A stretch of 64,000 nt of DNA from Raillietiella orientalis (taxonomy: Eukaryota): NCBI GenBank assembly GCA_036172245.1, contig JAYWIR010000096.1:1-64000 (forward strand), in the 5' to 3' direction. A model generated the notes under the pieces. It was not told where the DNA came from, did not search any database, and was given only the letters and a program-made list of their open reading frames with translations. The position numbers and the translations under genes are program-made. Of this stretch, positions 2,497-57,707 are shown piece by piece (the stretch's first letter is position 1; every line of letters starts with the position of its first letter).

Positions 2497-2503
2497 CGCC
2501 CTA

Positions 2504-20800: not shown

Positions 20801-20946
20801 CTTTCTGCAGGCCCGGACGTTTTCGAGACGCGCCGATGTCCGGCGTCTCGCAGAGTACAAGGCGAGGGCCCAGCGCCAGGTCTGGCAGTCCGGAGCAGCA
20901 TGCCTGTTGGACGACAAGGGCCAGGAATGTTCAGCCCCAGCCGAAG
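17893..20946 (+). mobile_element. Family F 5' portion (ORF1 with a frameshift near 19170 and a stop at 19585; intact endonuclease)
   Basis: GGACGTGTTTTT head at 17897; CEQCGKEGHSLDKC and CRYCKLSGHQLKNC; TAATG at 19888. Confidence 0.92.
19890..20946 (+). CDS. ORF2 N-terminus: APE-type endonuclease + linker, truncated by antisense insertion
   Basis: WNVNG, LQE, NVYAP, GDFN, LDHVF, SDH catalytic motifs in one frame. Confidence 0.92.
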
Positions 20947-25138: not shown

Positions 25139-25150
25139 TCTCAGGCGGCG

Positions 25151-26245
25151 GGTTGTTCACACGCGGATGTGCCGGGGCATTTATTTCATAGAAATAAAAT
25201 TACAGAAAAATGTCGCGTGGCGAACCCGAAGGTTTACCACTCCAAAACAGCTTGCTGGTTACCGGCTCCGTGCCGGAGAGGTCCTTCCGATGCGCGGGGA
25301 TGGGAAATAAAGAAAAACAAAAAGAAACAAAAAGTTCAAATGTGGGGGCGAACAAATGTTGTAGGGGTGGGAGGGCGGGGAAGGGATCACGGTGCGCGTG
25401 GAGAGGTCCTCTAGATCCTATTCAGGATCCGCACAAGCTGAGTCCTTTCAGCGCCCAAGTGGCGCCACTTGCAGACACTTCGCGCGAAAACGCGAGTCCA
25501 GTGTAAGGCGTTGCCGGTTGGCTGACGCCTACTTCTGGTGGCGTTGCAAGCCGCCACAATTCCTCTGATGCAGCAGAGGACTGCTACACTAGCGGGCGGG
25601 GACAAGGCGTCACTACAGAAGAGGCGCCTGAAAACGTCCTTTGGGCCGCATCCGCGCAAGTCCAGGATCGCCGCGAGACGATCCCATAAAGGGCGGATGG
25701 CACTGCACTCCATGAGAAGGTGGGGGAAGGTCTCTTTTTCCCCGCACCGGTCACAATAAGGATCCACAGCCCCCCGGGTTGTGTGATGAAGGCGTGCTTT
25801 GAATGGAAGTCCCCAGAGCACCACAAGCAGACCACCTCGACCCGCTGCCCTCCGCTCCGTATTGACAGGCAAAGAATTTTATGGTGGGCAATGCCCATCT
25901 TTTTGATATCATTGCCGAACTTTCGCGCCCTTAACGGGAAATATAAATTGCCTACCTTGTAAAGGAGGGCCGGATTGTAGCCCTCCTGGATGTAGGATTG
26001 GATTTCGGCGGCGACATCGGGTGTTTCCGCCGCTGCCACCGCGCTCCAGGCCCTCGCCGTAGCTGCGGGTTTAGAAGAAGTAATGGGGCGTGATCCCACC
26101 TTTTTTGGCTTGGGAGGCGCGGTCTTCCCGCCTCCCTCACCTGAAACTGCGGCGTTTACAGGCATTTCTGCCTGTCAACGGCCGCGAAACACACACGGAA
26201 CACCAGGAAAGAAAAACTCCCTATCCACGGAGCGCAAAACATTGG
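25151..26245 (-). mobile_element. ~1.1-kb mini-element: 5' UTR/ORF1 start fused (~25826) to family D 3' end
   Basis: MPVNAAV..QRVEVVC joined to LLWCSGD..CDRCGEKETFPHLLMEC; 25151-25825 near-identical to 49073-49750. Confidence 0.88.
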
Positions 26246-26724
26246 AGTCCGCAGTTTACCGCCTCCGAAGGAGCTACTACTCCTCTTAGTACTCGGAGGA
26301 GCCCAGCACCGCGCAGTCAAGCGCTACTCTCGTCGCTGATGCGAGACTTGGGCGATGTCCTTGCCTCGTTTCCCTCAGCAAAGCTGCGTCTCCTGCCGAA
26401 AGGCCTCGATTTGCGCCAACTGAACAAATGGCGTCCGATCACCTTAGTGAATTCGCACGTCAAGTTTTTCTCGAAACTTTGGGTGGCGCGGATGGAAGGA
26501 TCGCGGTGTCTTTGGTAAGACCGGAGCAGACCAACGCTGTTCCTGGGCGGACCATGGAAGCGAACATCTTATCCATCCGCACATGGCTGCAATTGCAGCA
26601 TCGCGTGGGGATGGATCGTCGTGCGGAAGCAACGCCTTCGATCTCTCACAAACGGAGGCGCGGGTGGCAAAGGGTTACCTCGGGAGCCTTGGCGATTGCC
26701 TGCGATTTGCAGAAAGCTTTCGAT
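26246..26724 (+). mobile_element. F-like linker/RT N-terminal fragment ending at KAFD
   Basis: VYRLRRSYYSS, LRLLPKG, WRPITLVN, DLQKAFD. Confidence 0.85.
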
Positions 26725-28534
26725 GTTCACCCGGATTTCTCCGGGGCGTTTACTGTTGAATAAACATGAAAATTATTTATGGCTGGAGCATTGCCACAGC
26801 CATAAAGAATTTTAACATGAAGTTTTTTTTTTAATACGCTGCCGGCTTCCCCCTCGGTTGCCGGTGCGTCTTCCCCCTTCTTTGTCGGGATGCGCCTCTC
26901 TGGATTTTTGGATTTCCGTCCAGTTTCCTTCAGAGGAACCTCCGCGGAGGAGGACGCACTTCCGGCATCCGGTTCGTGGTCACCTGTCGGAGTTGCCTGG
27001 TCGCGGCCGGCCTTCGCAAGGCCTTTCGCCCTCCGTTTTCACGGTTCGCGAGTTCGGCCGCGAGCTCTTCCGCCGCCTGTTGGAAGGCGTCGTCCTCCAT
27101 TGCGGCGAGCGCGTCGCTCGGCTCCCCTTCTGTTTGCGCAGAGGGTTCGCCTTACTCGTTCGCGGCTATGACGTCAACGAGGCGGGGGATATCTCCTTCG
27201 TTGGAGGTCTCGGGGATCTCCACGCGCTCCAAAGCGACCGAGCATTCGCGCAGCAAAGCGCGGCGTTGCCTTCTATTTCAAGAAGTTGTCGCGGGTTCCG
27301 CTGTCCGTTCCTCGGTTTTACGGATGTTTTGACTTTTCGGCTTCGCTGTTCGCCAGTTCTCGTTGTAACCAGCGTCGTCGGGAGTTATCTTGACCGCCGT
27401 TTGCTAAGAGCATTCGGACTCTGGCTTTTTTCTTGGACTTTCCTTTGCTTCTTCTGGCTTGCTTGTTTTCTCCAAGCGTTTCCCCTTACCTTTTTTCAAG
27501 ACAGAGGGGGCTGGAGGTTTCCGCTTTGGGCACACTTTTTGGAGGTGGCCCTTCTTCCCGCAGGGGAAACACTGGATGTGAAGGCACCGTTTTTTCAGGT
27601 GCCCTGTTGCATCACAGTGCCCACTGTAATTGGGCTTGCCCACGTACCAGACGTCGACGACCTAGTTGCCAACGGCGAGTACGTGGGGCAGCCCACCGTT
27701 TTCGTGGACGGTCACACGCGCTGCAGCCATGCCACTGAACAGTCTTGCGTATGTTTGGGAGACTTTGGGCTTGGTCCAGAGCGCAAGCACCGTATCATGT
27801 ATTTGAAATTCTTCCTGAAAGCCAGCTTTGGTCATGCGAAGAGTTGCAGAGGTTAGGTGTGCAACAATGGAGCGGTCCTCCGTTACGGGGAAGACTTTTC
27901 GGCCTTCCAAAGTGATGGGAGTGTTCAGCAGGCTCTGAGCCAGACTTGCATTTTTCAAGTCACCTCCACCCGCTGGCCCCCACTCATCACGGAGAGACCT
28001 TCCAGGTCTTCCTCTTTGACATCCAACCGCTGTAACTCTCTTTCAAAGTTACGAGCGGCGTTTCCCACAAATAGATTGTATACCTTGTAAATCAAGGACG
28101 GCTTGTATCCTTGTTCCAGGTAGGCCGGTTGTTCTCCTCAGGCTGCGGAAGATGGCGCTGCAGCCACGGAGCTCCAGGTCCTCGTGAATGGTGCAGACGG
28201 ATCCAAAGACGCGGTTGCTCTCTTTTTCAGGGAAGCGGTTGCGCCCATTTCCAAGGCAGCGGTTGTCCCCTTTTTCAAGGGGGCGATTGCTTCCTTTTCC
28301 AAGAGAGAGTCTGCTTCCTTTTTCAAGAAGGCTGTTGCCCTCTCCTCCGTGGGGGCAGTTGCCCTCACCTCATTGGGTTGGGGAGAGGTACAATCCTCTC
28401 ACCCGCCGACTTCCATCGCGGTGTCCTCAGGCATTTCTGCCATTGGACACCGCAGATGCACCACACACTCACACTAACGCAACGAACGGCTTTACAACAG
28501 TCGCTGGAGAGCGTGGAAAAAACACGTCCGCACG
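26725..28534 (-). mobile_element. Deletion derivative (B): 5' end + disrupted ORF1 joined to ~110 bp of an A-like 3' end
   Basis: GGACGTGTTTTT head at 28530; CFPCGKKGHLQKVC; 3' end TAAACGCCCCGGAGAAATCCGGGTGAAC. Confidence 0.85.
28205..28362 (-). repeat. About 6-7 degenerate 24-bp coding repeats (LKKxATAS-like) in ORF1 N-terminus
   Basis: ATAPTEER ATAFLKKE ADSLLEKE AIAPLKKG TTAALEMG ATASLKKR ATASL. Confidence 0.75.
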
Positions 28535-29752
28535 CCAAGTTGATAGCGAAGCTGTAGGCAGAGCGTCTGGGACGGGTTGCCAACATCTTCATCAGCCCTG
28601 AACAGATATATGCTGTTCCCAGGCGGAGCATGGAGGCAAACCTGGAACACGCTTTCACATGGTTAGAGCTCCAACAAGGAAGGGGCTTATTGAGCAGCCG
28701 GAATTCCAGTGCGTCCGTTGGCGGGACACGGGACACTCCGGTGGGAAAGGAAGCCCTTGCGGTCGCTGGGAACTTGCGTAAAGCATTCAGACAGCGTCGA
28801 CGAGAATCTCCTGCTGGAGTTTCTTAAACGCTTGGGCTTCCCGGTTTCTTTGTTGGCCCACCTGCGCTGCTGCTGGCGCGAAGCGCTCATCAACGTTTCT
28901 TTCAACGAGCAGACCGTGCACGGCGTGTCGGTGCGGCGTGGGATCCGGCAGGGAGACAGCCTGAGCCCCTTGCTCTTCAGTACCTACTTTGAGTTGGTAC
29001 TGAGAGCGTACAGGGGAACTCTGGTGCACCTGTTGCCCGACTGTGCCGGTACGCCGGCCGTTTCAGCATACGCGAACGACCTTCTGCTGCTGCTCCCTAT
29101 GTCCACCCCGGCTGCGGCTGTCGAGTTCTTCGACCTGCTGCATCGGGGAACAGGACTTACGGTGAACAGGGCGGAGTCGTCCGTGATGCCAGTTTGTGCG
29201 GCGTGGGCAGGGCAGCAGGACTGGGTCCGTTTGGGGATCCCCACGGTGAGGTACTTCAAGTACCTTGGTGTGCCGTTGGGGGAATACTCCCCTGTGGAAG
29301 CGTGGTCCGGCTGCCTTCAGAAGGCTCAGGCGGCGATCGGCCCGTTCCAGGACGGCAGGTTCAACCTGTGGGAACATGCTGCGGCGTGAAACGCGTTTGC
29401 GGCCCCCATTCTCCGCCCCTTGCTTTTTGTATGCCCCGCCCCCGTGGAATCAAAAAACCGGACGAAGGACCTCCTCCGCATAGCTCTTTGGGGCAAGGGG
29501 AGGCCCCGATTCCGTTTGACGGACCTTTGCGCTCCGCGTCGGGACGACGGTCTCAGCATCCTGACGCTGGAGCGCGTGGAAATCCAGATGCGATAGCGGA
29601 CCCTCGCCATCGCAGCGAAGATGTGGAGCACCGCTTGGTGCATTCCGGCCCGCCTCCTGGCCAGGCGTGTGTCCCTCTGAGAAGGACTCGCATCGTTTCT
29701 TCTGTGCCCTGGCCGGAAGATTCGAAGGTGCAGTCTACTGCTCGGCGCTCCA
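28535..29752 (+). mobile_element. A-like RT core fragment, no termini
   Basis: AKLIAKL, GIRQGDSLSPLLF, YANDLL, YLGVP; similar to 32960-34150. Confidence 0.9.
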
Positions 29753-32700
29753 GGGTGAACGTGTTTTCTCGGTGCTCCTCGTGCCAGAAAGTCTCCCCCA
29801 GTGCAAGCGTCGTGTGGTTCGGTGGTCGATCAGGCAGCGATGCCTGACGAGACCACCAGGGATGGCCAGGAGGCAGCGGCAACGCCGCCCCCAGAGGCGA
29901 TGTAGAGCCAGGGGGCGACGGCAACGTCGCCTTCAGAGGCGATGGAGGTAAGGGCATCCGCCCCCACAGAATCGGTTCCCGCTGCAGCGCGGGCGTGGAA
30001 CGCCGTTGTGTCGGCGCCATCGCCTGTAGCCGCGGCGGAATTGTTGGCCTATGTAGAGGAGGGGTACAACCCCTCATTGTTTTACAAGGTAGGCAATTTA
30101 TATTCTTTAGAGAACGCACGCGCCTTCTTGAAGGGCATGCGCGCTCTCGATGTGAAAGAGGAGGAGCTCAGCGCTATGACCATCCGCAGCGGGGGTCAGT
30201 ACATTGAGGTCATCGGCAAACATGCAGAGCTGGCCCAGCGACGGCTTAAAACCCCCTTGGTGATGGGAACGCGCAGGCTCCTCCCTATTACGGCGGACCG
30301 CACCATGGTGGTCCACCTGTTAAGTGTTACCGCGCGGATGCGTAAGGAACAGGTTCGCGCCGCGTTGGAGAAATACGGAACGGTCCACGCGCAGTGGACG
30401 AAAGTAAGTCCTTTCGAGGACTACACGGGGCTGCAACACGGCCTCACTGCTGCGCGCGTGATTGTTCGGGAGGGCTGCACTCTTCCCCACAAACTGGTGG
30501 TCGAAGGCGAAACCGTCGACCTCTGGTATGTGGGGAAGCCGAAATACTGTGGCTTCTGCAATACGTCGGGCCACCTCAAAAAGAGGTGTCCCAATGTGCA
30601 GTGCCAAGTATGCGGAACCATGGGACACACAAGGGAGGTGTTCCCAAAAGCAGCAGTGGGGGTGGTTTCCAAGAGAATCCTTAAAAAACGCGCCCGGCTT
30701 CTGCAGAAAAGGCTAGCGGCGAAAGCTCCCTCGAAGGCTGTGCCACCCGCGCCCAAGACCCAGGCCGCACCCGTGACCCCGGCGACCAACGCCGAAAAAG
30801 TTGAGGGAGCCGGTCAGGACACTGGGTGGCAAGCTGCAACGCCAAAAAATCAAAGAAGGAGAGAAAAATGGAAAAGAAAATCGCCTACAAACAGAGGCAG
30901 GAAGAGCAGGGTAGCGCGATTATTAAAGAGTGCAGCGTCGTTGTCGAACGCGTTCTCGATGTTGCCGAACGCTGCCGGAAAAAACTCGCCGCTTCCGACG
31001 ACCTCTTCTCTGTTGACACAGTCAACAGCGAGGGGAGCGAGCCGGCGGCGGCGTCCGTCATCGACACCACCATCGATGACGTAGCCTTAGCGCGAGCCGC
31101 GGAGGAGGTGGCAGCCTCGTTGCAGCGAGAACCCTTTAAGGCTGGCAAGAAGGCCGAAAGGCGTCCGGCCTCTCTTCAGGAGTCCCCCACTTCCGACCCG
31201 AGGTGGAGGCCGGAAGCGCAGCCTCCGTTTCCACGGCACCGCGCAAGAAGTCTGGACGTAAGTCCACAAAGCCAAGGAAGCTCGCTTCCCCCGTCGAAGG
31301 GGAAGAGATGGCTTCCGCAAGCAAGGTTGCCATGAGCGTGGGAAACTCTCGGGACCCGTCGCCCGAGAGAATCCCACGTGCGGACACGGAGGGGATGGAG
31401 GGGGTGGAGGCCGAACAGGTGCGTCAGGTGCCTGAGAAGGCCGGAACCCTCATGGACATCCCACCCGCCTCGCAAGAGGAGGGCTCCCCCACACCTTAAT
31501 CTTCCCAGCAGTAATGCCGGGAATCTCCTCCCGCCGTCGTCTGCGCATCGCCGTTTGGAACGTGAACGGCATGACAGACGCCTGCAGGTGAAAAGTCATA
31601 TCCGCCCTAATGGAGTCCTACGTCCTTGCGCTGCTGCAGGAGATCCACGTGATCTCTGCAGCACAAGCGCAAGAGATCGAACGGATCTCCGGAGGGCGGC
31701 TATGGTACAGGTGTGGGAGAGCGAAAAGTTAAGGTGTCGCCTACCTGCTTCGGCCAACGGTCGAGGCCGCGGCTCGGGGCGTGCGGTTCGACGATCACGG
31801 TCGTGTCGGCCAGCTGACTCTCAGGTGGTGCGACTCGATCGATCTGATCGTCACGAAGGTGTACGCACCGAGCGGCAAGGACCTGATGACCAGGAGGGCG
31901 GGGAAAGAGTTTTTCCTTCCTTCCCTAGACTGGCTGGCCGAAGCAGGCGTGCGGAATGCCCATCTGGTTGCAGGCGATTTCAACGTTCGCCTGAAACCAG
32001 ATGAGCAGAATCCCGAGCGTGACCTGGTCAACGAGGTGTGCATGGCGGTGCACACCTGTAATCTGTTGGCCAGTGCACCGGAGATGGAAGACAGCATTGA
32101 CCAAGTGTTTCTTGACGAGCACCTGTGCCCTCGCGTGGGCAGGCGCGGCAAGTTACTGTGCGAGCTGTCCGACCATCGCCTGCTAGTCCTCGAAATCCAT
32201 CCGCGCGACAAAGGCTTCCCCTCGTCAGCGTGGCGTCTCCCAGGTGACTGGCTGAAGCTCCCGGACGCGGCCGAACATCTCCGCACGTTCATACGGAGCT
32301 TCAGGCTGCGGACACTCCAGGATTGGGACCGCTTCAAGCGGTCGGTCCAGGAGTTTTGCGACCAGTTCCCTCTGCACCGCCTACCTACGGGTTTTGGGAC
32401 CGGGGTCCGTAACGAACGAGCCTACCTGCAGGCCCGCTTTTACGCCAGGACCCCCGACATCCGCTGGCTGGCGGAATACAAAGCGGGAGCCGAGAGGCAA
32501 GCCTGGCAGTCAGGATCGGCCAGCCCACTGGACGATCAGGGCCAGGAGCACTCGGCACCCGCTTAAATCCGCGGCCTGCTGCGCAGTTACTACTCCTCCC
32601 TGTATGCCAGGGCACCTCCAAAGAGGAACGTCTCACGACTCCTGCTTCCGGAAGGCGCTCCAGCAATCGGAGAGGAGCAGAGAAAGAACCTCGACGAGCC

Positions 32701-35312
32701 TTTCACGATGGACGAGATCCTCTCGGCCATCGGAAAGCTTACGAGGCGAAAGGCTCCAGGGGGGACGGCCTGCCCGCGGAGTTTTATCAAACTTTCGCGG
32801 CTGAGCTTACCCCCCTGGTACAGCAACTCACCTTGCTGATACGCGAAACAGGTGACGTTACCGCCTCGTTTCGTTCGGCAAAGGTGCGGCTCCTCCCTAA
32901 GGGAGGAGATCTGAGGAGCATGAACAACTGGCGTCCCATCACAATAGTGAATGCGGACGCCAAGTTGGTGGCCAAGGTTTGGGCAGAGCGTCTGGGACGG
33001 GTTGCCAACATCTTCATCAGCGCGGAACAGACATATGCTGTTCCTGGGGGAAGCATGGAGGCGAACCTGTTCCATGGTTCCACCTGGCTAGAGCTCCAAC
33101 ATGAAAGGAGCTTGGTGCGCAGCCGGAATTCCGGTGCGTGCGCCGGCAAGGGGTTGGATGGTCGTGTGGGGGAGGGAGCCCTTGCGGTCGCAATCGACTT
33201 GCGAAAAGCATTCGATTGCGTCGACCAGAATCTCCTTCTGGAGCTTCTGGAACGCTTGGGCTTCCCGCCCTCATTAATGGCCTATCTGCGCTCCTGCTGG
33301 CGCGGAGCGCTCATCAATGTTACTTTCAGCGGGCAGACCGTGCACGGCGTGCCGGTGCGGCGTGGGATCCGGCAGGGATACAGCCTGAGCCTTTTGCTCT
33401 TCAGTACCTACTTTGAGTTGGTACCGAGAGCGTACAGGGGAACTCTGGCGCTGCTGTCGCACGACTGTGCCGGTACGCCGGCCGTTTCAGCATACGCGGA
33501 CGACCTTCTGCTGCTGCTCCCCATGTCCACCCCGGCTGCGGCGGTCGAGGAGTTCTTCGACCTGCTGCATCGGGGAAGCGGACTTACGGTGAACAGGGCG
33601 AAGTCGTCCGTGATGCCAGTTGGTGCGGCGTGGGTAAAGCAGCAGGACTGGGTCCGTTTGGGGATCCTTACAATCAGGTACTTCAAGTTCTTTGGTGTGC
33701 CGTTGGGGGACTACTCCCCTGCGGAAGCGTGGTCCGGCTGCCTCCAAAATGTAGAGACGGCAATCGGCCCGTTCCGAGGCAGCAGGTTTTTCCTGCATGA
33801 ACGGGCCGCGGTTTGGAACACGTTCACGGCTCCTCTCCTCCGCTCCCTGCTTTTTGTTTGCCCCCCCACAGAGAGGATCAAAAAGCGGACGAAGGACCTC
33901 CTCCGTATCGCCCTTTGGGGCAACGGGAGCGCCCGATTCCGCTTAAAGGACTTGTGCGCTCTTCGTCGGGATGGTGGTCTGGGCCTCCTGACGCTGGAGC
34001 GGCTGGAGCTTCAGCTCCAGTTCCGCATGTCGGCAATCGTTCGAGAGGTGTGGTGCACCTGTTGGTGCGTCCCTGCACGTCTCCTACTCCAGCAAGCCAC
34101 CGGGAAGACGGGACTGACGTCGTTTCTTGCACTTCGTCGCCGCGTCAACCGATGCGGACTCCACCTACGGAGGGTGGCTGCGCTGTATCAAAAAAACCAG
34201 GACTGCTCACCTGTCACCCGTTGAACGGTAGTGCCTGGTTGCAGGAAACCGTTCGAACGTGATGACAGTTCGGCATGCAACGCTCCCAACAGGAACAGAG
34301 GTTCCTGTTTGGGGGTTACAGAAGTTGCACGCTTCCCGAGATCCTGGAGGATCCAAAGAAGAGAGCGTGGGCAGGAAGAACCCTCCTCGCTGCTGCGCTG
34401 CCCTCCCTGATTGAAGATCTGGACAGCGATGTGGCGGCGAAGTGGGTGGTTACAGTAACAATCTCCGGAATGCAGAAGAAGATAGGAGAGTGGAAGACGG
34501 GCCAGTTAACAGAGGCTGCGACCCCGAGTACGCCTCCCAATGGACTTATGCGCTGGGGCGCGCTGCTCGATGTTCTCATTGAACATCTGAGGTGGCCCCC
34601 GGTGCTCATGAACACTTTCGCCCTCCCCTTGAAATGGCAGGAGTCGGCTCTCCTGTAGCAGCACTGGGGACTACCCTGCAGCGCCGTTCGTCACCACTGG
34701 ACCTGGGGAGCGGTGGACCCCAATTGCGTCAGGTGTGGGCAAAGGGAGTCCCTCCCCCACCTGCAAGTGGATTGTGTTGCCCTTCGGCCCCTTTGGTTCC
34801 GCTTTTCCGCGGCCATCGGTATCCCCTGCGGCAACCCCAGGGACGCACCGAAAGCTCTCTTCGTTGCCGACGCCCTTCGGCCAGCGGCCTCGTTAGCAGC
34901 TTTGTGCTGCCTACGCGGGATCGTCAGCGCTTGGAGCAAGGCTACGAGAGGACAACGCCACCAGGGTGCCATCCAGCCAGCCTCCCAGTTCCTGAAAAGG
35001 GCGTCCCGATGGCCCCACCTGGATCCAGGAATACAGAAGGAGCTTGCCGGCATCCTGCAAAGGATGCAACGGCCCCAACAGCAACTGTGATCCCTTCCCT
35101 TACCCACTCAACTTTTCTTTTTCTTTTTTGTTTTCTTTTTTTTTTGTTTTTTCCTTTTCCCCCTGCTTCCGTGGTGAACCGTACCGGTCTGCGAACCGGT
35201 GACCCGGCAGGCTCTGTGTTTCTTCATGCGTGGCTGGAGCAATGGTCCAGTCACCGCACGTGTTTGTAAAAGTTTATTTTACAATAAACGTCCCGGCGAA
35301 ATCCGGCTGAAA
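29753..35312 (+). mobile_element. Full-length (~5.56 kb) family A LINE with frameshifts and stops
   Basis: GAACGTGTTTT head at 29757; ORF1 from 29840; TAATG at 31512; EN, RT (YADD), CVRCGQRESLPHLQVDC; stop 35090; AATAAA + hairpin 35283-35312. Confidence 0.95.
31514..35090 (+). pseudogene. Family A ORF2 (EN-RT-CCHC), disrupted
   Basis: Motifs spread over ORFs 31781-32566, 32833-34224, 34275-34658 and 34713-35090. Confidence 0.88.
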
Positions 35313-37742
35313 ATCAAACGCCTTGTGGAGATCGACTGCGAGCGCTAGGGCCCCCTTCCCTGCACAGCGTTCCCTTCCCATCGCGGCTAGTGGCCTCAAT
35401 GTGGGTTTGCCGACTTTCCCCATTCCTTTCTTTTCTCTTCTCTGCAGGTGCACCGATGTGCTTGCGAAGAAGAGGTTGGCATCCATACTTCGCCCGAAAA
35501 CAGCATAAGCCTGCTCCGGGTTAATAGCGGATTCTGCCACCTGTCCGAGACTCGAAGCCCTCAGCCCTGCTATCAACTTGGCGTCCGTATTCACGATCGT
35601 GATATGACGTCAGTTCCTTAAATCCCTGAGGTCTCCCCCTTTCGGAAGGAGCCTCACTCTGGCTGACCGAAACGAGGCGCCTACATCGCCTTCGTCTCGG
35701 ATCAGCGTGATCAACTTAAGCAGCAGGTGTGCGAGCTCTTCCGCGAAGCACTGAAAGAACTCCGCGGGAAAGCCGTCTTCCCCTGGAGCTTTACGCCTCT
35801 TGAGCCTTTTCATACTGGCGAGAATTTCGCCGGTGGTAAAAGGCTCGTCAAGGCTTTCCATCTCCTCCTCCCCTATTGCCGGGGCGCCATCCGGAAGCAA
35901 GCGGCGAAAGGCGTTCCGATCCGAGGGCTCACTGGCGTAAAGGGAGGAATAAAAACTCCGCATGTGCTGCCGTTCCGACGCCGGGGACGAACATTCCCGG
36001 CCCTGGTCGTCCAGCAATCTGGCCGACCCGGATTTCCAGGCTTGGCGTTCGGCCCCGGCGCGGTACTCGGCCAGGCGACGGACATTAGGGGTTCTCTCGT
36101 ACCTACATGCCTGTAAATAGGCCCGATGGTTGCGAGCACCCTCGACGAATCCGGGGGAGCAGGCGATCCAGAGGGAACTGCTCACAGAACTCGCGGACCG
36201 ATTCCTTAAAAGGGTCCCAGTCCCGCAGATTCCGAACCGTGACGCCTCTCAGATATTCGCGGAGGTGTTCTTTCGCACCTGAGAGTCGCGTCCAGTCCCC
36301 CGGCAGACGCCAATCCCTGGATGACGGTCCTTTGTTGCAAGACCGCATCAAGAAAATTAGCCGGGAATGGTCCCACAACGTCGACGCTACCCTCTCCCGT
36401 GTGCGACCCGTGAACACAGGTCGGCGTCGAGGAAGACGTGGTCGATGCTGCGGACCATTCCCCTCTCACATGCAAAGAATTTGCGCGCACGCATGGAGGC
36501 GCACAACTCGTTCATCGCGTTCAATTGTGTTTGAGTCTCACCTGTTAGCAGAAGGAGATTGAAATATCCCGCTATCAGGTGAGCCTTCCCCACGTCCGTG
36601 TCTGCCATCCAGTCGCGCTTCAGGGATTCCAGCAGCCTGGTACGGTCGCTGTATCCCTGTTTACCGCTGGGTGCGTACACATTCGTGACGATCAGTTCGA
36701 TCGAGTCGGACCAGCTGAGAATCAGCTGACCGACCCGACCGTCGTCATCGAGGCGCACGCCCTTCACGGCAGCGACGTTGGCCGGCTTCACGAAGAACGA
36801 TACCCCGCTGGTGTTGCGGAGTCCGCATCGCCAATACAACCGACCCCCCGCGATCGTCTCGATCTCCTGGGCGTCTGCCGCGGTGATCACGTGGATCTCC
36901 TGCAGCAGGGCCAGGTCGAGCTCACGGAGGGTGTCGGCCGTATCTCGCCTGTTTCCGTAGTCGCGACGCCCGTTGACGTACCAACAGCCGGCGCGAATCC
37001 GACGGCGACTGGCGAGCCCAGGTGTTACTCCTGGGAAGATGGCGATGCGGCGTCCGCCAGCTGTTGGGGCGGGACGCTAGGTGGAGGAGGAGGGTCAGGC
37101 GCTGTGTGCACCTGGTCCCCCTCCTCCATGCGTAACGGCGCGTCGAGCGGGTCACCCTCAGGTTGGGTCGCGCCTACCTGTTGGCCCTCCTCAATGGGGG
37201 TGGACTGTTCAGGCTCGGCGACTGCAGGGAGGACTTCGCCCTTCTGCTCACCCTCCTCCATGGGGGTGGCCGGCTCGACGGCTTCCGAGCGTGGGAGTTC
37301 CCCTCTTGGATTCCCACGCTACCGCTAGATTCCCGCTTCTCCTCCTCGCTGGTGGAGGGGAGGCGCCTCGTGGGTTTCTGGGACTTGCGTCCCGACTTCC
37401 TGGGGGGTGCCTTTGAGGAGGAGGATGCACTTTCGGCCCCCAGGTCCGACTAAACTGTGGGGGCCTTTTTCGCGGCTGCCGGCCTTCGCACGGCCTTGCG
37501 TGAGGGGTTCTCACGCTCCGCCAGCGTGGCCGCGAGCTCCTCCGCCGCCTTTGGGAACGCGGCGTCCCCGGTGTCGACCGGCGCGTCGCGTGGCTCACCC
37601 TCTGTTTGCACAGAGGGTTCGTCGTCGCGAACTTCGTGCGCGACGGAAACGGCGGGAGGAGGCTCGACGCCCCGGGTGGCATCTTCCGGAGCGACGATAC
37701 GTTCCAGTGCCACCGTGCACTCGCGTACGGTTTTCGAACGGG
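35313..37742 (-). mobile_element. Family E internal portion (ORF1 C-terminus, EN, RT up to KAFD)
   Basis: Closely similar to 44910-47330; ends at AVDLHKAFD. Confidence 0.92.
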
Positions 37743-40138
37743 TTTCGAACTACGCAGGAATGCGCGCAGATGTTCGCGCGCTCCAGCGAGTCGCAACCAG
37801 TCCCCCGGTAGGCGCCACGCTTCGGAGGGTGGACCTCTGTCGCGCGCATGGATGTTGATTACTAGCCGAGAGTGATCGGACAGCTCCGACGGAATTGCTC
37901 CTCGAGTCCCCACCCGCGTACACAAGTGGTTATCGAGGAACACGTGGTCGATTCTGCTTCTCACCCCGGCTTCATCGGCCAACAAGTTGCGTGTGTGCAT
38001 AGCCGCACACAACTCGTTGACCAATTGTGCTCGTATGTCGGGCGCTTCCGACAGCAGACGGACGTTGAAGTCTCCCGCTATCAGATAGGCCCGCTGTACG
38101 CCTGCTTCGGCCAGCCAGTCTCGCCGCAGGGCTTCGAAGAACGCATTGCGTTCTGCGCGCCTGTGGCTGGTGCAGGGCGCGTACAGGTTCGTGAATACGA
38201 GGTCGATCGATTCGGACCACTTAAGGACAATTTGTCCGACTCGACCTTCCTCGTCGAACTGTGCTCTGCGCATTGCATTGGCGACGGCCGGCTTCAGCAG
38301 GAAGGCCACTCCGCGGGAGTGGTCTCCTCCACCACGCCAAAGTAGCCTCCCCCCTGTGAGCCTCTCGATTTCCTGGACGTCCTCTGCTCTGAGGGCATGC
38401 ACCTCTTGGAGAAGTGTCAGGTCGAAAGGTCGCAGGGTGTCGGCCACGCTACGCCTCTTGCTTTCGCTACGCAGCTCGTTGACATTCCAACAGGTTATAC
38501 GCAGCTGCCGGCAAGAAGCGATTCCACGCATCATACTAATGATGGTGGTGGCGTGTGTATTGCCGCCTCCTGTTCGGGAGGCATCTGGTCGTTGTCCATC
38601 TGCGGTTATGGCGTTTCGGCAACGACCGGAACGTCTGCAGCCGGACTGAGGTCGATAGGAAGGACCGACCGGATGCTGTAGATAGAGGGATCCCGCGACC
38701 TCGCTGACATCGCCTCCTCGCTATCCGAGCGCATCTCCTCCTGCTTAGCCTGAGGGGGAGAGACGCGCATAGGGTTGCGCGACTTCCGGCCCGCCTTCCT
38801 CTTCGGAAGGGCGACGGTGGGAGCGTTTCCGGATTCCACCTTGAACCCGGAAGTTTCCGGGCCCTTAAGTTCCGCCGGACGTCTGACGGCCTTCTTTGCA
38901 GCCTTAGGCGGCTGCATTAAGGTGGCCGCGAGTTCCTCCGCCGCCTTCGCGAAGTTTTCCCCTCGCTGCTGCTCCCGTGTTTGTCGCAGGATTCGTGCGG
39001 CAATTCCGCGGCGTTCGCGACGGTTGCGGGAGTCGCGTTCGCCGATCGACGCTCGATCGACGGAACGCGCCGTTTGTAACGCGTCATTCCTTTATGGACT
39101 CGCGCGGCGAAATTTTTGGTTTGCCGACCGCGGGTTTTTTGGGAACGCTCGCGTTCTGATTTGTTTTATTTTTTGTATTTATTTTCGTTTTTTTTTGTGT
39201 GTGTTTCTTTTGGTTTTTTGTTTGAAACGACTTTCATTTTCCTCGTCGGCAGTTGGCTCAGAAGTCTCCTTTTGAGGCTTCTGCTCCTTGTGCACGACTT
39301 CTTCTGAGGTCGGCTGTTAATCGTTGGTTTTTTGGTTTTCTACCTTCTTCCCCTTATTTGTCGAAGGGGCTGAAGGCGTTGTCGCGGCGGTTTTCGGGCA
39401 CACAGCACTAGTGTGGCCCTTCGCGCCGCAGGTTGGGCATGTGGCATCGGGGCATCTCTTTTTAAGATGCCCGAATGTGTTGCACAGCCCACATTATTTT
39501 TCCTTCCCTACGTACCAGAGGTCAACGAGCTCGTCGTTGACTTCAAGCTTGTGGGGAAGTTCTTTGTTTACGCGGAGAGTTACGCGTGCGGCCACTCGCC
39601 CACTGAATGCGCCTCGATAAGTAAAGGCCTTGGGCTTCGACCACATCGCGAATATCTCCGCGAACTTGTTGATTTAAGTGCGGATGGCTTCTTCGGTCAT
39701 CCGCACCGTTGCACCAGTGAAGTAAATCACCATATAGTGATCCACCGTGTGTGGGAGGAGATTCCGCCCTTCAAACGGAACGGGCGTGCAGAGCAGTTTG
39801 TGTGTGAGCGCTGCATGTTTGCAGATCAGCTCCGCGAACTGCCCGCCGCTCCGAATCGAGAAGCAAAGAATCTCCTCGTCAGAGATTCCCATCCTACGGA
39901 TTTCGTTTCCAAATTTCCGCGTTGTAAGCGGAGAATGAAGATTTCCTACCTTGTATAGGAGGGCTGGGTTGTAGCCCTCCTTTATGTAGGCCTGCACTTC
40001 GGCGGCCACGTCCGGCGGATCCGCCGCGGTCACCTTGTTTTACGCCCTTGCAAGGGTGGCGGGGGCTGATTTTGTGGTGGGGCATGACCCCACCTCCATA
40101 GGTTGGGGAGACGTATGCCTCACGTCTCCCGTCGCAGG
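37743..40138 (-). mobile_element. Family H portion: disrupted ORF1 + intact endonuclease, both termini missing
   Basis: EGYNPALLYKVGNL; knuckles; ORF from 38534 MMRGIASCRQLRITCWNVN..GDFN..IDHVF..SDH. Confidence 0.9.
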
Positions 40139-42293
40139 TTTTCCATCCGGGTTAGCCGGGGCTTTTATTACTAAAATTCTGACATTACAAAATTTTGTAA
40201 GAAGGTCTTTGTTGTTCAAAAAAAAATCTTTCTTTTTCGGACGTCAGACGTTCATTGAAGTTCAATAGCACTTGTCTTTATCGACCCGGAAGCCGATAAA
40301 GTCCTTCATTGGCGCCGAAACGAAGAAAATAAACAGCAAACAAAACAAAAAAAGGAAAACGTCTAGAGGGCAATGTTTATGGGGAGCGGGAAAGAGGGAG
40401 GGGATCACGGTGCGCCGTGAGCAGGCCTTTGCATCCGGTTTCGGATGCGAACAAGTGCCGGTAAATGTTTTTGAAGTCGGCGCCAACGGCACGCTTTCTC
40501 CAAGGAGATCGCTGCCCAGTGGATGGCATTCCTGCTGGTCCTTCCTCTCCTAGACGCGGTATACTTCTCTAGGATACCGCGTATGCAGCAGAGCACTGCT
40601 GCACTCCCGGAGGCTGGCAAGCCGTCTCGCGTCAGTAGGCGTCTGAATAAATTTTTTGGGTCACCCTCCGGAATGTTGAGAAACTACGAGATTCTGTCCC
40701 ACATTTCGCGGAGGGCAACACACTCCAGAATCAAGTGAGGGATGGTCTCCCTTTCCTCGCACTCTGCACAACTAGCATCCACATTCCCCGTTGTCCAGTG
40801 AGATAGGCGTGCTCTGCTTAAAAGTCCCAAGTGGAGCAGAAGCAACGCCGTCTCCTGCCACTGCAGGGGAAGGGTACCGTTGTCTCATGACGCTGGGGGC
40901 CACTTCACCTCCTCCGGAGGTATACCGAGCAGCGCGCCCCAGCGTAAAAGTCCGTACGGCGGGACACTCGGGGTACTAGCGTCCCCTAGTTCCCTCGGCG
41001 TCCACGCCTTCAGTGATTTTTTCCTGCTTCCGATGAGACAGGACACTTCCCACGATGCCTGTTGGTACCTGTCCCGAACTTCCCTGAGGGAGCGCAGCAC
41101 TGAGGCAAGGGAATAAAGGAAGCCCACAGAAGTTTCCCTGGGCTGGAAACGATCTCCTGGAGTGGCTGACCAGCGTGCCTCCCTCTGCGGAGGCAGGAGA
41201 AGTCCTCATGGCTGGTGCCATTGATCTTCGCCCATGCGGATACGGACTCCTGAAGCCAGGTAGTCCAGTCCGCTGGGATGCAGGAGATCCAAGGGTTGTC
41301 TCTCATCAGAGCAACCAAATCCCGCAGCTGATAACCACAATGGTTCAGGCTGCGTTCGTTGGCTACGAGGATTGAAGTCAATCCGAAGCAGCCGGTTGCC
41401 CTGTGAGCAAGGAGTCTAGCTGGTGCAGACCAGGGTGCTGTCCAAAACTTTGCCACAACGGCAAGTTTTCTGAATTGGACCTGTCGCTCCATGCGCTCCA
41501 ACGTCAGGATACCAAGTCCACCGTCCCTGCGTAGAGCGCACAAGTCTTTGAGCGGGACGCGGGGCCTCCGGTTGCCACAGAGGGCTTTCCGTATAAGGCC
41601 CCTAGTCCGTGTCCTAATTTGATACGGGGTAGAGCACACAAAAAGTAGGGGGCGAAGGAGGGGGGCCGCGAAAGCGTTACATACCGTGGCCCGTTGCTGC
41701 AAGTGAAACTTGCCGTCCCGGAACGAGCCGATCGCCAGCTCCACCTTTTGTAGACGGTCGGACCAGGCTTCTGCAGAGCAGAAGTCCCCCAACGGAACTC
41801 CAAGGTACTTGATGTACCTGCCCGTGGTGATCCCCAAGCTGATCCAGTCCGATCGTCCGGCCCTCGTCACGTCGGTGAAATGCAACGACGACTTCGTCCT
41901 GTTCACCTGGAGGCCTGTCCCACGGTATAGCAACTCGAAGAAATCCTCGAGCGCCGATGCCGGGGTGGACCCGGGAAGCAGGAGCAGAAGATCGTCGGCA
42001 TAGACCGACACGGCAGGCGTGCCGGGAAACGAGCTCGGCAGGGTTGCCAAAGTCTCCCTGTATGCTCGCAGCACCAACTCAAAGTAGATGCTGAAGAGCA
42101 GGGGGCTGAGGCTGTCACCCTGCCGGACTCCACGACGAACCGGCACGCCGAACACGTGCCGGCCGCTGAAATTAATATTAATGAAAGCGAAGCGCCAGCG
42201 GGAGCGCAGGTAGGCCAGGAAGACGGCCGGAAATCCCAAGCGTTTCAGGAGCTTCAGAAGGAGCTCCTGGTCGACGCAATCGAAAGCTTTACG
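40139..42293 (-). mobile_element. Family G 3' half starting at RKAFD
   Basis: RKAFDCVDQ, GVRQGDSLSP, YADD, YLGV; 3' end AATAAAAGCCCCGGCTAACCCGGATGGAAAA. Confidence 0.92.
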
Positions 42294-42300
42294 TCGGCAA

Positions 42301-43779
42301 GAGCGGACGTGTTTCCTCAGTGCTCCTCGTGCCGAGAACCGTCCCTAGGTGTAGGCTTCGTGTGTAGTGGTGGTCGATCAGGCAGCAATGCCTGACACGA
42401 CCACCAGTGCGTGTCAGGGGGCGGTGGCAACGTCGCCTCCTGAAGAAATGGAGTGCCAGGTGCAGGCGGCAACGTCGCCTCTAGAGAAGGTGGAGTGCCA
42501 GGAGGCGGCGGCAACGTCGCCTATAGAGAAGGTGGAGTGTCAGAAGGCAGCGGCAACGTCGCCCTCAGTGGCGAAGAAGGTGGAGGCGTTCGCCCCCACA
42601 AAACCGGTCCCCGCTGCAGCGCGGGCGTGGAGCGCCGTCGTGTCGGCGCCATCGCCTGCAGCCGCGGCGGAATTATCTGCCTATGTGGAAGAGGGGTATA
42701 ACCCATCACTATTCTACAAGGTAGGAAATTTGTATTCTGCTGAGAGTGCGCGCGCCTTTTCGAAGGGGATGCGCGCTCTCGATGTTAAAGAAGAGGAGCT
42801 CTGCGCAATGACTATTCGTAGCGGGGGGCAGTACGTAGAGGTGATCTGCAAACATGCAGATCTGGCCCAACGTCTGCTTAAATCCTTCGTGGTAATGGGG
42901 ACACGCAGGCTCGTTCCCGTTACGGCGGACCACAGTATGGTGGTTCACCTTTTAGGAGTTACCGCGCGGATGCAGAAAGAACAGTTACGCGCCGCGTTGG
43001 GAAAAGAAGGCACGGTCCATGCAGTATGTACTAAGCCTAGTTCTTTCGAGGACTATACCACAGTTCAGTGCGGCCTCACGGCTGCCCGTGTAACCGTTCG
43101 GGAGGGCTTTACCCTTCTCCACAAACTGGTGGTCGGCGGAGAAAATGTCGACCTCTGGTACGTGGGGAAGCCCAAATACTGTGGCTGCTGGAACACGTCG
43201 GGACACCTCAAAAGGAGGTGCCTCAACGTACAGTGCCTGCTATGCCTGACAACGGGCCACACGAAGGAAGTGTGTCCACAATCCGCTGTGTGCGTGGTTT
43301 CCGCAGGGAACCTAAAAAAACGCGCGCAACTGCTACAGAAAAAACTGGCGGCGAAGGCTGCCGCTCAAGCTGTGCCACCCACTCCCGTGGTCCAGGCCTC
43401 AGCCGACACCCGGGCAACGCATGTTGAAAAGATTGACAAAAGTGGTCAGGTGTTGGAATGGCAAGAAGTCACAGCGAAAAAGAAAAAAAAGTCGAAGAAA
43501 AAACGACGAATCGAAAAAAAGCTCGCCTACCAAAATAAAAAACATTAGGTTAGCGAGAATTTAAGAGAATGCAGCGTCGTAGTGGAACGCGTCTGCGCCG
43601 AACGGGGCACGGTAGAAATCGCTGCTACCGACGAGCAACCCACTGTTGAAAATGTCAACAGCGTGGGGAGCGAACCGGCGGAAGCGTCCGTCATTGAGAC
43701 CGTGATCGATGACGCCGTCTTCGAGCGTGCGGCGAAGCAGCTGGCTGCATCGTTGCAGCCAGACCCCTCCACGGCCAGT
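42301..43779 (+). mobile_element. Family A 5' fragment (ORF1)
   Basis: GGACGTGTTT head at 42305; ORF1 ATG 42388; CGCWNTSGHLKRRC, CLLCLTTGHTKEVC. Confidence 0.92.
42409..42576 (+). repeat. Four 42-bp coding tandem repeats (ECQEAAATSPxEKV)
   Basis: Units start at 42409, 42451, 42493, 42535; only two units in the copies near 2625 and 29860. Confidence 0.88.
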
Positions 43780-43795
43780 AGGAGGACGTGTTTTT
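43780..43795 (+). promoter_or_regulatory. Conserved LINE 5' terminal motif GGACGTGTTTT (putative internal promoter/initiator); representative copy
   Basis: Also at 2508, 6159, 15582, 17897, 29757, 42305, 53543 (+) and 25134, 28530, 63924 (-), always ~60-130 nt upstream of ORF1. Confidence 0.65.
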
Positions 43796-43868
43796 CCTTC
43801 ACTCCCCAAAGAGTAGTAGGAAAGCGCTTTTTCTTCTGTGTGGTGTTTTGTGTACATCGTCGCTGTCC

Positions 43869-45615
43869 AATGGCCACGACGCCAGAGAACACCGCGATGG
43901 AGGTGGGAGTGGGGGAGGCTAGTTCGCCCCCACAGCCTACTGGAGCAGGGGCAGCCGCCCCGGAATCATCCCCGGCCACGCCGAGGACATGGAGCGCCAT
44001 GGTGGCCGCGCCCAGCGCAGAAGCCATGGCGGAGATGGCCGCATACAAGGCCTCCTGGTACAAGCCATCGCTTGTCTACCAGGTAGGCAACTTGTTCGAC
44101 GGCCGGACAGCGCGCGCATTCAGCAAAGCGTTGAAGGACGCGAATGTCACAGAGAAGGATCTGGACGGCCTCTCCGTCCTCAGCGGCGGGCAGCGGGTCG
44201 AGGTGGTCTGCAAAGATGTCACCTTGGCTCACCGCCTAATCCATGCGCCGCTGAACGTAGACGGCCGCAAGATCCTGCCAGTATCCATGGACCGCTCCGT
44301 GGTGGTCCACATGACTGGCATCACCAGCCGCATGACGGGGTCAGCGGTTGGTGAGGAATGGCGGAAGTACGGTGAGGTGCACGCACTGTGGCCGAAACCC
44401 TCCATTTTCGACGGCTTCGATAGCCTTTTTGGTGGGCAGGCTGCAGCGCGGGTCACCGTACGGGAGAATTGTGGGCTTCCCCACAAACTACAGGTGGCGC
44501 AAGAAAACGTCGACCTGTGGTATGTAGGGAAGCCCCGGTATTGCGGGCATTGTGATACCGTGGGACACGTACGTAAAAGGTGTCCCAATATACAATGCCA
44601 TTTGTGCGGGGAGCGGGGCCACGTTCGGCGCGTGTGTCCCAAACGCCCCACCTTGGTTCCCCCTGCCGCGAAAAAAGCGCAGGGGAAACGTGCTTCAAAG
44701 GTCTCTAGACCTCAAGTAGAAAAGGGCCAGCACAAGCTGCCAACACCTCAACCTCCGGCGCGTAAGCCGGAGGATAAACCTTCTGAAACGGTGGAAGGCG
44801 AAGAGGGATGGCAGCTTGTAGAGGCCACAAAGCCGAGGAAACTCCCACCCGCGGAGAGCAAAGAGCGCAAGACGGCCGGTAAGCCGAAAAAAACCGGTTT
44901 CCGCTCGAAAACTTTGCGCGAGTGCACGGTGGCACTGGAACGAATCGTCGTTCCCGAGATTGCCACCCGGAGCGTCGGTCCTCCCCTTGCCATTTCCGCT
45001 GCGCCCGAGGCTCTCGACGGCGAACCCTCTGTTTACACAGAGGGTGAGCCGCGCGACATAGCGGCGGTCGAAGCCGCGGACGCCGCGTTCGCGCAGGCGG
45101 CGGAGGAGCTCGCGGTCACGCTGGCCGAGCGTGAGAACCCCTCGCGCAAGGCCTTGCGAAGGCCGGCTCCGGCGAGGAAGGCCCCCAAAGGTGAGTTAGA
45201 CCTATGGGCCGGAAGCACATCCTCCTCCTCGGAGGCACCCCCCAGGAAGTCCGGACGCAAGGCTCAGAAGCCCAGGAGGCGCCTCCCCTCCACCAGCGAG
45301 GAGGAGAAGACGGAAACCGTCGCCAGCGTGGGAAATTCGGAGGAGGAATTCCCACGCTCGGAAGCCGTCGATGCGGCCACCCCCATGGAGGAGGGTGAAC
45401 AGGGGGGTGAAGTCCCCCCTGCAGGCGCCGACCCTGAACAGCCCGCCCCCATGGAGGAGGGCGAACAGGTAGGCGCGACTCCACCTGCGGGTGATCCGGC
45501 CGACGCGCCGGCACCGATGGAGGAGGGGGACCAGGTGCCTTCAGCACCTGACCCCCCTGCTCCACCAAGCGTCTCGCCCCAGCAGGTGGCGGACGTTGCA
45601 CTGCCATCTTCCTAG
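43869..45615 (+). CDS. Family E ORF1p (essentially intact; CAG>TAG two codons before the normal stop)
   Basis: MATTPENTAMEVG; CGHCDTVGHVRKRC, CHLCGERGHVRRVC. Confidence 0.88.
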
Positions 45616-45620
45616 GAGTA

Positions 45621-57549: not shown

Positions 57550-57707
57550 TGATTATTGCTAGTTCAAAACTATACCCAATACCTCACCAAGGTAATGTTT
57601 AAAACCACTGCCAAGGCAATTTTTGAGTGCCCTGAGAGGGCAAATGTTTAAGTGAACGCCAGTGTGGAAAGAGTTCAACCGAGGACCATCATCAGCAGCA
57701 GCAGCAT

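Follow-up and report, generated by a model that had tools for sequence, protein, structure and literature searches.

The A-type elements and the LINEs that they interrupt

The window, by which we mean the whole 64-kb stretch of DNA analysed here, is made up almost entirely of LINEs: it is a nest of related L1-like elements that possess an ORF1 and an ORF2 with endonuclease and reverse transcriptase (RT) domains. The sole end-to-end copy of the A type in the window is A2 (29746-35312, plus strand, 5567 bp), which has a head (29746-29880), ORF1 (approximately 29876-31188), ORF2 (approximately 31478-35066, with the APE at 31478-32221 and the RT at 32234-33840) and a 3' UTR of three hairpins that finishes with ..CCGGCTGAAA at 35312; the copy has both frameshifts and stops. 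Positions 32413-34221 match the Pfam profile RVT_1 (E = 2.2e-19), the APE shows 51% identity to the H APE in tblastn and keeps the NVNG, LQE, GDFN and SDH motifs, and the element as a whole has the APE-then-RT layout of ORF2 that characterises APE-type non-LTR retrotransposons. Exo_endo_phos was found by Pfam in six sibling copies, and matches to zf-RVT and to a CCHC motif in ORF1 were weak. Affinity to L1 was measured on the sibling E2, 57% identical to A2 in the part concerned: the N-terminal part of E2 ORF2 matches human LINE-1 ORF2p with E = 3.9e-41 and R2 proteins with 5.8e-07. The only pointer to the Tx1 clade is the homologue P0017, whose Atlas cluster is named 'Transposon TX1 ...' at 0.88. 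L1 elements of the relaxed type typically end in poly(A), but the tails here consist of a CCCGG-loop-CCGGG hairpin followed by TGAAA or TGAAC with no run of A, and the three-hairpin fold of the 3' UTR is common to the tails of all families, which fits a stringent type of 3'-end recognition.

Two further A-type heads are present on the plus strand. A1 (2497-3700) begins with CGCCCTAGGGC GAACG.. and extends into part of ORF1 before the 3' end of copy c5 truncates it near 3700; A3 (42294-43768) begins with TCGGCAAGAGC GGACG.. and has an ORF1 with 73% amino-acid identity to that of A2, after which the head of E2 follows. The head core GTGCTCCTCGTGCC has three mismatch-free occurrences (2523, 29772, 42320), a second head motif also has three occurrences against none expected, and the A-type tail motif has two against 0.00 expected. 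The 11 nucleotides before G(A/G)ACG are part of the element (CGCCCTAGGGC in A1, CGCTCCAGGGT in A2) and form a small terminal hairpin of a kind that other families also have. A4 (26725-28539, minus strand) combines an A-type 3' tail (26725-26834) with a divergent ORF1-like region (approximately 26993-28250) and an E-type 5' head that reaches 28539, and is without ORF2. The single "family A" of the preliminary description is thus heterogeneous, for A4 has another head and a different ORF1, lacks ORF2 and holds only the 3' hairpin tail in common; it looks like a non-autonomous rider. Between the heads of A4 and A2 lies A5 (28540-29745, plus strand), an A-like ORF2 fragment that corresponds to residues 178-585, approximately, of the A2 RT frame and is 78% identical to A2 over the 252 nucleotides compared; its motif A (28777-28791) is uninterrupted and frameshifted.

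Four LINE copies are broken where they meet A-type termini. Host1 (420-2496, minus strand) is the 3' half of a LINE ORF2, starting with the H codon of HKEVD and finishing in a C-type 3' tail near 420; it is broken by A1 and resumes at 2496 with HKEVDCVDQ, so that its motif A (2482-2496) is a degenerate form of xKAFD, and residues 279-483 of the A2 RT map to 1850-2452 in tblastn. Host G (40338-42293, minus strand) is likewise a 3' half of ORF2, broken by A3 and resuming at 42293 with RKAFDCVDQ, its RKAFD occupying 42279-42293. Host F is an RT fragment (26327-26724, plus strand) that ends exactly in ..CDLQKAFD, with KAFD at 26713-26724, and the reverse complement of the A-type tail begins directly afterwards at 26725, where A4 has its 3' end. 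Host E1 (35313-37741, minus strand) is the 5' part of an E-family LINE, made up of the C-terminal part of ORF1, the APE and the RT as far as ..VDLHKAFD; its KAFD (35313-35324) is broken by the tail of A2.

Geometry of the insertion junctions

Two A-type 3' ends therefore adjoin the GAT of KAFD (26724/5 and 35312/3), and two A-type 5' ends adjoin the H/R codon of xKAFD (2496/7 and 42293/4). We re-derived the junction coordinates by hand and obtained exactly the four positions of the preliminary description, along with the antisense orientation of the insertion to the host that it had reported (four of four) and its 11-nt distance from the host to the G(G/A)ACG head, which is seen at host1 and host G. 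The 5' flanks stop at the x codon and the 3' flanks start at the D codon, and they thus overlap by 15 bp. From this overlap, which has the geometry of a 15-bp target-site duplication (TSD), we infer such a duplication by composing flanks of different copies, because no single copy in the window shows both. The overlap announced in the preliminary description is accordingly real, although it comes from different copies, and A2 and A4, the elements with both ends, have 5' flanks that do not match. The 5' ends of A2 (29746) and A4 (28539) are both away from KAFD and adjoin the same 1.2-kb fragment A5, the A2 head lying off-site against the sense-oriented A5 at a point close to residue 585 in the frame of the A2 RT; to account for their position, an additional rearrangement or template switching has to be assumed. 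A clean 10-bp TSD is seen in the sibling element T2, indicating that target-primed reverse transcription with target duplication operates in these LINEs.

E2, a close relative of E1, provides an unoccupied reference site (HKAFD, 47319-47333, plus strand; antisense strand GTCGAAAGCCTTGTG). The first seven nucleotides of the E1 flank (ATCAAAC) differ from those of E2 (GTCGAAA) at three positions and the following 33 nucleotides are identical, which makes the exact position of the nick and the length of the TSD uncertain. The same comparison bears on another way of reaching the site, in which RNA-DNA pairing guides homing more than a specific endonuclease does. A read-through A transcript, its 3' extension derived from the KAFD flank of the donor copy, would anneal to nicked or breathing KAFD sites and fix where reverse transcription starts; RNA would then be the template for the first bases of the apparent 3' flank, and the true duplication would be about 8 bp. 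Read-through pairing of this sort is known for R1Bm. The concentration of differences between E1 and its 89%-identical relative E2 (three in the first seven flank nucleotides, none in the next 33) would follow, and the A tail (..TGAAA or ..TGAAC) is not complementary to a primer ending ..TTYGAT, with which a read-through ..AUCRAA would pair. Nevertheless, the argument draws on one informative junction and a post hoc test (p of about 0.03 by hand arithmetic at 11% divergence), and we consider it unlikely that pairing takes the leading part. It would still require a nick at the KAFD site and so is better seen as an addition to a specific endonuclease than as a substitute.

The site is available in A2 itself, where the RKAFD codons (33202-33216, plus strand; antisense strand ATCGAATGCTTTTCG) are uninterrupted. 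They differ from a site that was hit (ATCGAAAGCTTTACG) at only two of 15 positions and so give no sign of self-immunity in A. As a point against targeting, near-perfect sites in copies c14 and c23 (ATCGAACGCTTTACG), one mismatch from the site hit in G, contain no insertion.

Recurrence and independence of the breaks at motif A

Fourteen RT copies in the window reach motif A. Nine are intact there (two of them, c14 and c23, lie within one segmental duplication, 11422-15571 = 19784-23931, 87%), four are broken exactly at xKAFD, and one, copy K, has lost about 200 nucleotides around the motif and has no insertion. All four breaks are made by A-type termini. Among the termini that we read in the window, four of five of the A type are at the KAFD site as against none of 12 from other LINE types (Fisher's exact test, p of about 0.002 by hand arithmetic), a small sample of four junctions, representing three to four events, in a single 64-kb window. 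Chance is a negligible cause of this distribution, and coincidence at the same nucleotide in hosts of about 5.5 kb is far less likely than the Fisher value. In a related organism one contig connects 26674 to 42290 on opposite strands, which is the appearance expected of an uninterrupted RT.

The loss in copy K, together with a perfect 8-bp palindrome (AAAGCTTT) in the hit sites of F and G, could be taken to mean that KAFD is a fragile or recombination-prone spot that captures any end, A being merely the element active at the time. We think this improbable: the perfect palindrome is missing in E1 and host1, the 12 termini of other families are located elsewhere, and the four breaks are all of A type, in one orientation, with full-length heads or exact tails and a constant 15-bp offset between the 5' and the 3' breakpoints.

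The preliminary description had counted at least three host families, and our trees place the four hosts in different lineages, which gives three or more events of independent origin. The sister of E1 is the uninterrupted E2 (support 96/100, identity about 89-90%), and that of host F is the uninterrupted c5 (support 100/99). The insertions themselves are also diverse: A1, A2 and A3 are 71-76% identical to one another, and A2 and A4 have only their last 105 or so nucleotides in common. Descent of the junctions from one or two old composite units of host half plus A, duplicated or moved together with no preference for a site, had been named in the preliminary description as what would overturn its claim; despite the segmental duplication in the window and a single BLAST alignment that spans both 5' junctions (1704-3698 against 41487-43583, 69.7%), it is very improbable, being largely refuted by AU tests that reject F plus E1 (p = 3e-5) and host1 plus G (p = 0.018) as single clades and by the host identities (80% between G and the intact c23, 66% between G and host1), while every interrupted host has its nearer relative in an uninterrupted copy and not in its interrupted counterpart, and the 11 nucleotides of the A3 head and the bodies of A2 and A4 cannot be aligned as duplicates.

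Probable target choice in A-type LINEs

Target-specific LINEs are recognised by independent copies at the same nucleotide position, and here there are four junctions from at least three events; two otherwise different elements with an A-type tail, A2 and A4, both have it at KAFD. We consider it probable that elements with this tail are target-sequence-specific LINEs aimed at the motif-A codons of their siblings. The recurrent, independent and antisense insertion on which the preliminary description based its claim of site specificity is found at these codons, and cleavage by the A endonuclease, which it also proposed, is retained as a putative step; its further idea, that the site was selected as one from which hosts can hardly mutate away, is a possible one. 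Against specificity stands the A2 endonuclease, which lines up collinearly with the endonucleases of non-specific siblings and has no distinctive loop in that comparison.

From the observed positions, orientation and independence of the junctions we infer a cutter, an order of nicks and a TSD as follows. L1-like APE-type LINEs with the A-type 3' tail would comprise an autonomous lineage (A1-A3) and the ORF2-less rider A4, and would integrate by target-primed reverse transcription at the x-K-A-F-D codons of the RT of related LINEs, always antisense. The A-encoded endonuclease would nick the host-sense strand directly after the GAT/GAC of KAFD, and the freed 3' OH would prime reverse transcription of the A RNA, whose recognition by the RT may depend on the terminal CCCGG-loop-CCGGG hairpin and TGAA(A/C). 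A second cut, in the opposite strand, would then fall at a distance of 15 bp, ahead of the H/R codon, so that a complete insertion would carry ATCRAANGCYTTRYG on both flanks of the A-sense strand. The insertion would split the host RT at its catalytic motif. Since the target would be a conserved coding motif in every sibling LINE, targets would always be in supply, and A insertions would enlarge LINE-only islands such as this window. The copies are all old, those of A diverging from one another by 24-29%, so they are no evidence that A is active at present.

Known target-specific LINEs occupy rDNA, snRNA and tRNA genes, telomeres, microsatellites and one DNA transposon. In the Tx1 group, Tx1L is found in the DNA transposon Tx1D, Keno in U2 genes and Mutsu in 5S genes; in the R1 clade, R1 is found in 28S rDNA and TRAS/SART in telomeric repeats. 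Such elements have a fixed TSD of about 14-15 bp (14 bp in R1). Like them, A is an APE-plus-RT LINE found at a single nucleotide position in a sequence that exists in many copies; unlike them, it would have as its target the coding sequence of RT motif A in sibling LINEs, in antisense. Our literature search found no published LINE that targets the RT motif-A (KAFD) codons of other LINEs. The Tx group falls inside the L1 clade (PMC3747384).

The dense LINE-only nest in the window resembles those of Zepp (Chlorella, Coccomyxa) and ZeppL (Chlamydomonas), which are L1-clade LINEs for which the available parts of the literature give no target nucleotide sequence. The 3' end of ZeppL-1_cRei (L1-1_CR) is described as poly(A) repeats in the text available to us (PMC3747384), in contrast to the hairpin and TGAA(A/C) at the ends of the elements here; ZeppL is also larger (about 8.3 kb, compared with 5.6 kb for A2), and the hosts in our window are several diverged lineages and not only the element itself. 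In their three-hairpin 3' UTR and in the rider-like A4, the elements of the window resemble the stringent-type L1-clade LINEs of the monocot L1 lineage, whose conserved 3' stem-loop shows compensatory changes, implying that the RNA is recognised specifically by its 3' end and that non-autonomous riders are possible; these plant elements are not reported to be target-specific, as far as the available sections of both sources go (PMC3747384, PMC3472496).

If our reading of the target is correct, A would supply a natural endonuclease/RT pair with a recognition site on the scale of 15 bp, of interest for targeted RNA-templated insertion, and a testable mechanism for the unexplained nested self-insertion that builds the centromeric clusters of Zepp and ZeppL. 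A broader reading, on which we are evenly divided, is that A is a hyperparasite that homes genome-wide and in antisense to the x-K-A-F-D codons of sibling LINEs with a 15-bp stagger, that the same 3' hairpin brings riders of the A4 kind to these codons, that nesting makes Zepp-like and possibly centromeric islands grow, and that an arms race takes place at a motif fixed at the protein level. Such a target exists in many copies, does the cell no harm and is kept from changing by the selection that acts on the RT of the hosts themselves. If confirmed, a LINE directed at the codons of the catalytic motif in other LINEs would clearly exemplify parasite-on-parasite targeting in eukaryotic retrotransposons.

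Interrupted RT motifs in the LINE nest

The window is occupied along its entire 64-kb length by nested, related LINE copies on both strands. A Pfam scan of 146 frames found RVT_1 in 13 and Exo_endo_phos, the APE endonuclease, in seven, together with a CCHC knuckle in one ORF1 and a weak zf-RVT match. Self-BLAST and tblastn with in-window frames separated several lineages with an ORF2 identity of 50-65%, which we name A, E, H, C (copies c12, c21, c14 and c23), c5/F, G and, more distantly related, T. In its N-terminal part the ORF2 of E2, an E copy, matches human LINE-1 ORF2p (E = 3.9e-41) far better than R2 (5.8e-07), so the elements of the window belong to the L1 group. An Atlas match points tentatively towards diatom-rich clusters. 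An exhaustive protein search returned two relatives, P0017 (65%) and P0043 (56%), in both of which motif A is intact; word-indexed protein searches gave distant matches only (24-33% identity), and the genome-contig and viral-contig collections held no relative of the E2 ORF2. Contigs of one public sequencing run, which shares 13% of words, matched 26000-45999 mostly as relatives below 90% identity. Within the nest a 4.1-kb composite, an APE fragment (+) interrupted in antisense, at ORF2 residue ~376, by a C-family LINE (-), occurs twice as a segmental duplication (11422-15571 and 19784-23931; 87% identity).

Of the 14 RT copies that extend into the motif-A region, nine are intact (c5, T1, A5, A2's own, E2, H, T2, and c14 and c23, these last two within a single segmental duplication of 87% identity), four break off exactly at xKAFD, five codons of motif A, and one, K, is deleted there. 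All four breaks coincide with an A-type terminus. Conversely, four of the five A-type termini lie at xKAFD compared with none of the 12 other-type termini whose flanks were read, namely the heads of E2, E3, A4 and B and the tails of H, H-dup, c21, host1, c5, T1, T2 and the copy ending at 54634 (Fisher's exact test, p ~0.002). In copy K (54644-56876, -) about 200 nt are missing at 55205-55230, equivalent to residues ~228-297 of the A2 RT frame with motif A included, and no inserted sequence is present at the joint.

The positions and antisense orientation of the four junctions are plain, and re-reading the sequence returned exactly the positions given in the preliminary description. Two of them are 3' junctions: in host sense, ..CDLQKAFD of F (26327-26724, +) is followed from 26725 by an A tail in reverse complement, and ..VDLHKAFD of E1 (35313-37741, -) by the reverse-complemented tail of A2 (29746-35312, +), which ends at 35312. 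At the 5' junctions host1 (420-2496, -) restarts at 2496 with HKEVDCVDQ next to A1 (2497-3700, +), and G (40338-42293, -) restarts at 42293 with RKAFDCVDQ next to A3 (42294-43768, +). The 11-nt spacing ahead of G(A/G)ACG that had been described is present at both of these; the 11 nt are element sequence (A1 CGCCCTAGGGC, A2 CGCTCCAGGGT), so host1 and G stop right at the x codon. A similar small hairpin ahead of G(G/A)ACGTGTTT opens other families too. Head motifs occur three times in the window and the tail motif twice, where zero would be expected for the long motifs; the A-type tail reads AACGYCCCGGNGAAATCCGGNTGAA.

The third A head, that of A2 at 29746, adjoins A5 (28540-29745), a sense-oriented A-like ORF2 fragment, and not a KAFD site; its flank, considered as an antisense 'RRAVDC', is the sense strand of that ORF2. 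A KAFD-like string to the left of A5 (28480-28496), considered as a fifth junction, belongs to the E-type 5' UTR of A4. A protein search with the 40 C-terminal residues of the E1 frame that reads into the A tail (..KAFDFQPDFAGTFIVK) returned three candidates, none of which scored; the tail-encoded peptide of the E1/A2 junction was found in none of 165 proteins compared. A metagenome scan for the tail core gave 120 loci, all of them chance matches that lack both the extended tail and any KAFD flank.

Target sequence and mechanism of insertion

On the A-sense strand the 5' flank ends in ..GCA ATCGAAAGCTTTACG at G and in ..GCA GTCGACCTCTTTATG at host1, and the 3' flank begins with ATCAAACGCCTTGTG GAGATC at E1 and with ATCGAAAGCTTTCTG CAAATC at F. 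The proposed 15-bp target site duplication (TSD) holds to the extent that the two flanks overlap by 15 nt encoding x-K-A-F-D, but the overlap is pieced together from different copies, and no A-type element in the window has both copies of this TSD on one insertion. A complete insertion would carry the 15-bp duplication ATCRAANGCYTTRYG. The flank of E1 differs from E2 at three of its first seven nt and at none of the next 33; the first flank bases of E1 may have been copied from read-through A RNA, so that the true duplication would be shorter.

From this one 64-kb window of old, decayed copies we infer that A is probably a target-sequence-specific APE LINE acting by TPRT. Its nuclease would make the first nick in the host-sense strand, after GAT, priming would use the A RNA with its hairpin mark, and the second strand would be nicked 15 bp away. 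No distinctive loop was seen in the A2 endonuclease. Homing guided by the RNA flank is an unlikely account of the junctions, and one that is complementary to target-specific insertion by TPRT. The palindrome AAAGCTTT lies within the F and G sites, and a fragile or palindromic site is a very improbable source of the breaks. The empty site of c14 and c23, ATCGAACGCTTTACG, is one base off the site of G, and A2's own site, ATCGAATGCTTTTCG, is two bases off it; thus nothing shows self-immunity of A, and occupancy of the site is incomplete.

Number of insertion events

The junctions are independent of one another. A tree built on 400 nt upstream of the break pairs E1 with its uninterrupted sister E2 (96/100; 90% identity) and F with its uninterrupted sister c5 (100/99), and the AU test rejects a clade of F and E1 (p = 3.1e-5); for a tree built on 780 nt downstream of the break it rejects a clade of host1 and G (p = 0.018). 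Identity to G is 80% for the intact c23 and 66% for host1. On the A side, A1, A2 and A3 have a mutual identity of 71-76%, and A2 and A4 can be aligned over their last ~105 nt only. Trees, AU tests and identities therefore speak against one or two duplicated events, the case that the preliminary description had set against its own claim, and duplicated composite units can hardly be the origin of the four junctions.

Pairings of the broken hosts were also considered. G is of a different lineage from E1 and F and is not the other half of either, nor are E1 and G halves of one host; F and A5, at 54% identity, do not form a single host carrying a long duplication. Host1 and F may belong to the same lineage, which puts the number of events at three or more, most likely four. 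Terminal branches tend to be longer in the interrupted hosts than in their intact relatives (E1 0.10 vs E2 0.013; F 0.26; host1 0.22-0.34), which fits older copies with more time to be hit.

Element ends, composite units and known systems

A 3' UTR with three hairpins is common to all LINE lineages of the window (35203-35312, 26725-26834, 49077-49186, 20952-21061 and 54525-54634). The hairpins are GC-rich (with a sequence that varies between lineages), AT-rich and, at the end, CCCGG-loop-CCGGG, followed by a short family-specific tail (A, TGAAA/TGAAC; H, TGTGAAC..; C, GGCAAA); no poly(A) was found at LINE 3' ends of the window. All 5' ends have a small GCCC..GGGC-like hairpin and then G(G/A)ACGTGTTT. 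The 3' ends are of the 'stringent' type, which one account describes from some L1-clade lineages (PMC3747384). A hairpin-type 3' end explains how an ORF2-less element with an A-type tail could reach the KAFD target. A4 (26725-28539, -; 1.8 kb) is such an element. Its E-type head is complete (CTTGGCGTGC GGACGTG.., to 28539), its ORF1 shares only 37-45% identity with the ORF1 of A2 or E2, its three-hairpin tail is A-type, and it has no ORF2. Hence the four termini ascribed to family A are all A-type ends, but the body of A4 is not family A; A4 may be a non-autonomous rider that uses A-type machinery.

Only A2 and A4 have both of their ends inside the window. Their 3' ends lie at the KAFD of E1 and of F, respectively, and their heads, both adjoining A5, point at each other across its 1.2 kb. 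We found no derivation of this layout from simple insertions. Template switching is plausible in this LINE group because of two other units. In the first, T2 (57641-62447) has a full-length U4 snRNA sequence immediately on its 5' side (57503-57640; Rfam RF00015, 82.6 bits, model positions 1-138), and direct repeats of 10 bp, TTAGCGATCG (57489-57498 and 62449-62458), enclose the pair (57489-62458). This looks like a single retrotransposition event, either a template-switch U4/LINE chimeric retrocopy or a U4-headed LINE; at the other T copy (T1, 7590-10733, -) no U4 was detected at E <= 1. In the second, H-dup, a 5'-truncated H copy of 686 bp that is 98.4% identical to H (25133-25829 and 49066-49751; the youngest pair of the window), is joined head to tail, at its 3' end (..TGTGAACAACCYGCCGCC), to B (-), the LINE that follows with its 5' head directly at the joint; this suggests template jumping between LINE RNAs.

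The ATCGAAAG ahead of U4 was considered as a half site but falls within the TSD that flanks the U4-T2 insertion. By eye, the U4 5' end (AGCCTTGCGCAC.., 57503-57525) agrees with the antisense KAFD site (..GCTTTACGCAG, e.g. 23095-23112) in 8 of 11 positions. The likeness may be a coincidence; as snRNA genes are targets of relatives of these LINEs elsewhere, it could also hint at the origin of such a target.

Target-specific LINEs with an APE endonuclease are described as mostly members of the Tx1 and R1 clades, 'transposons' being among the target classes listed (PMC4640811). The L1-clade LINEs Zepp and ZeppL form nested clusters and are characterised as 'targeting existing copies'; the descriptions compared do not state a target sequence. 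In full-text literature, a scope outside which subscription journals and Repbase Reports fall, we found no LINE reported to target the RT motif of other LINEs. Site-specific LINEs are already known, and what would be new here, on the sequence of this nest, is a target that lies in the RT motif of other LINEs.
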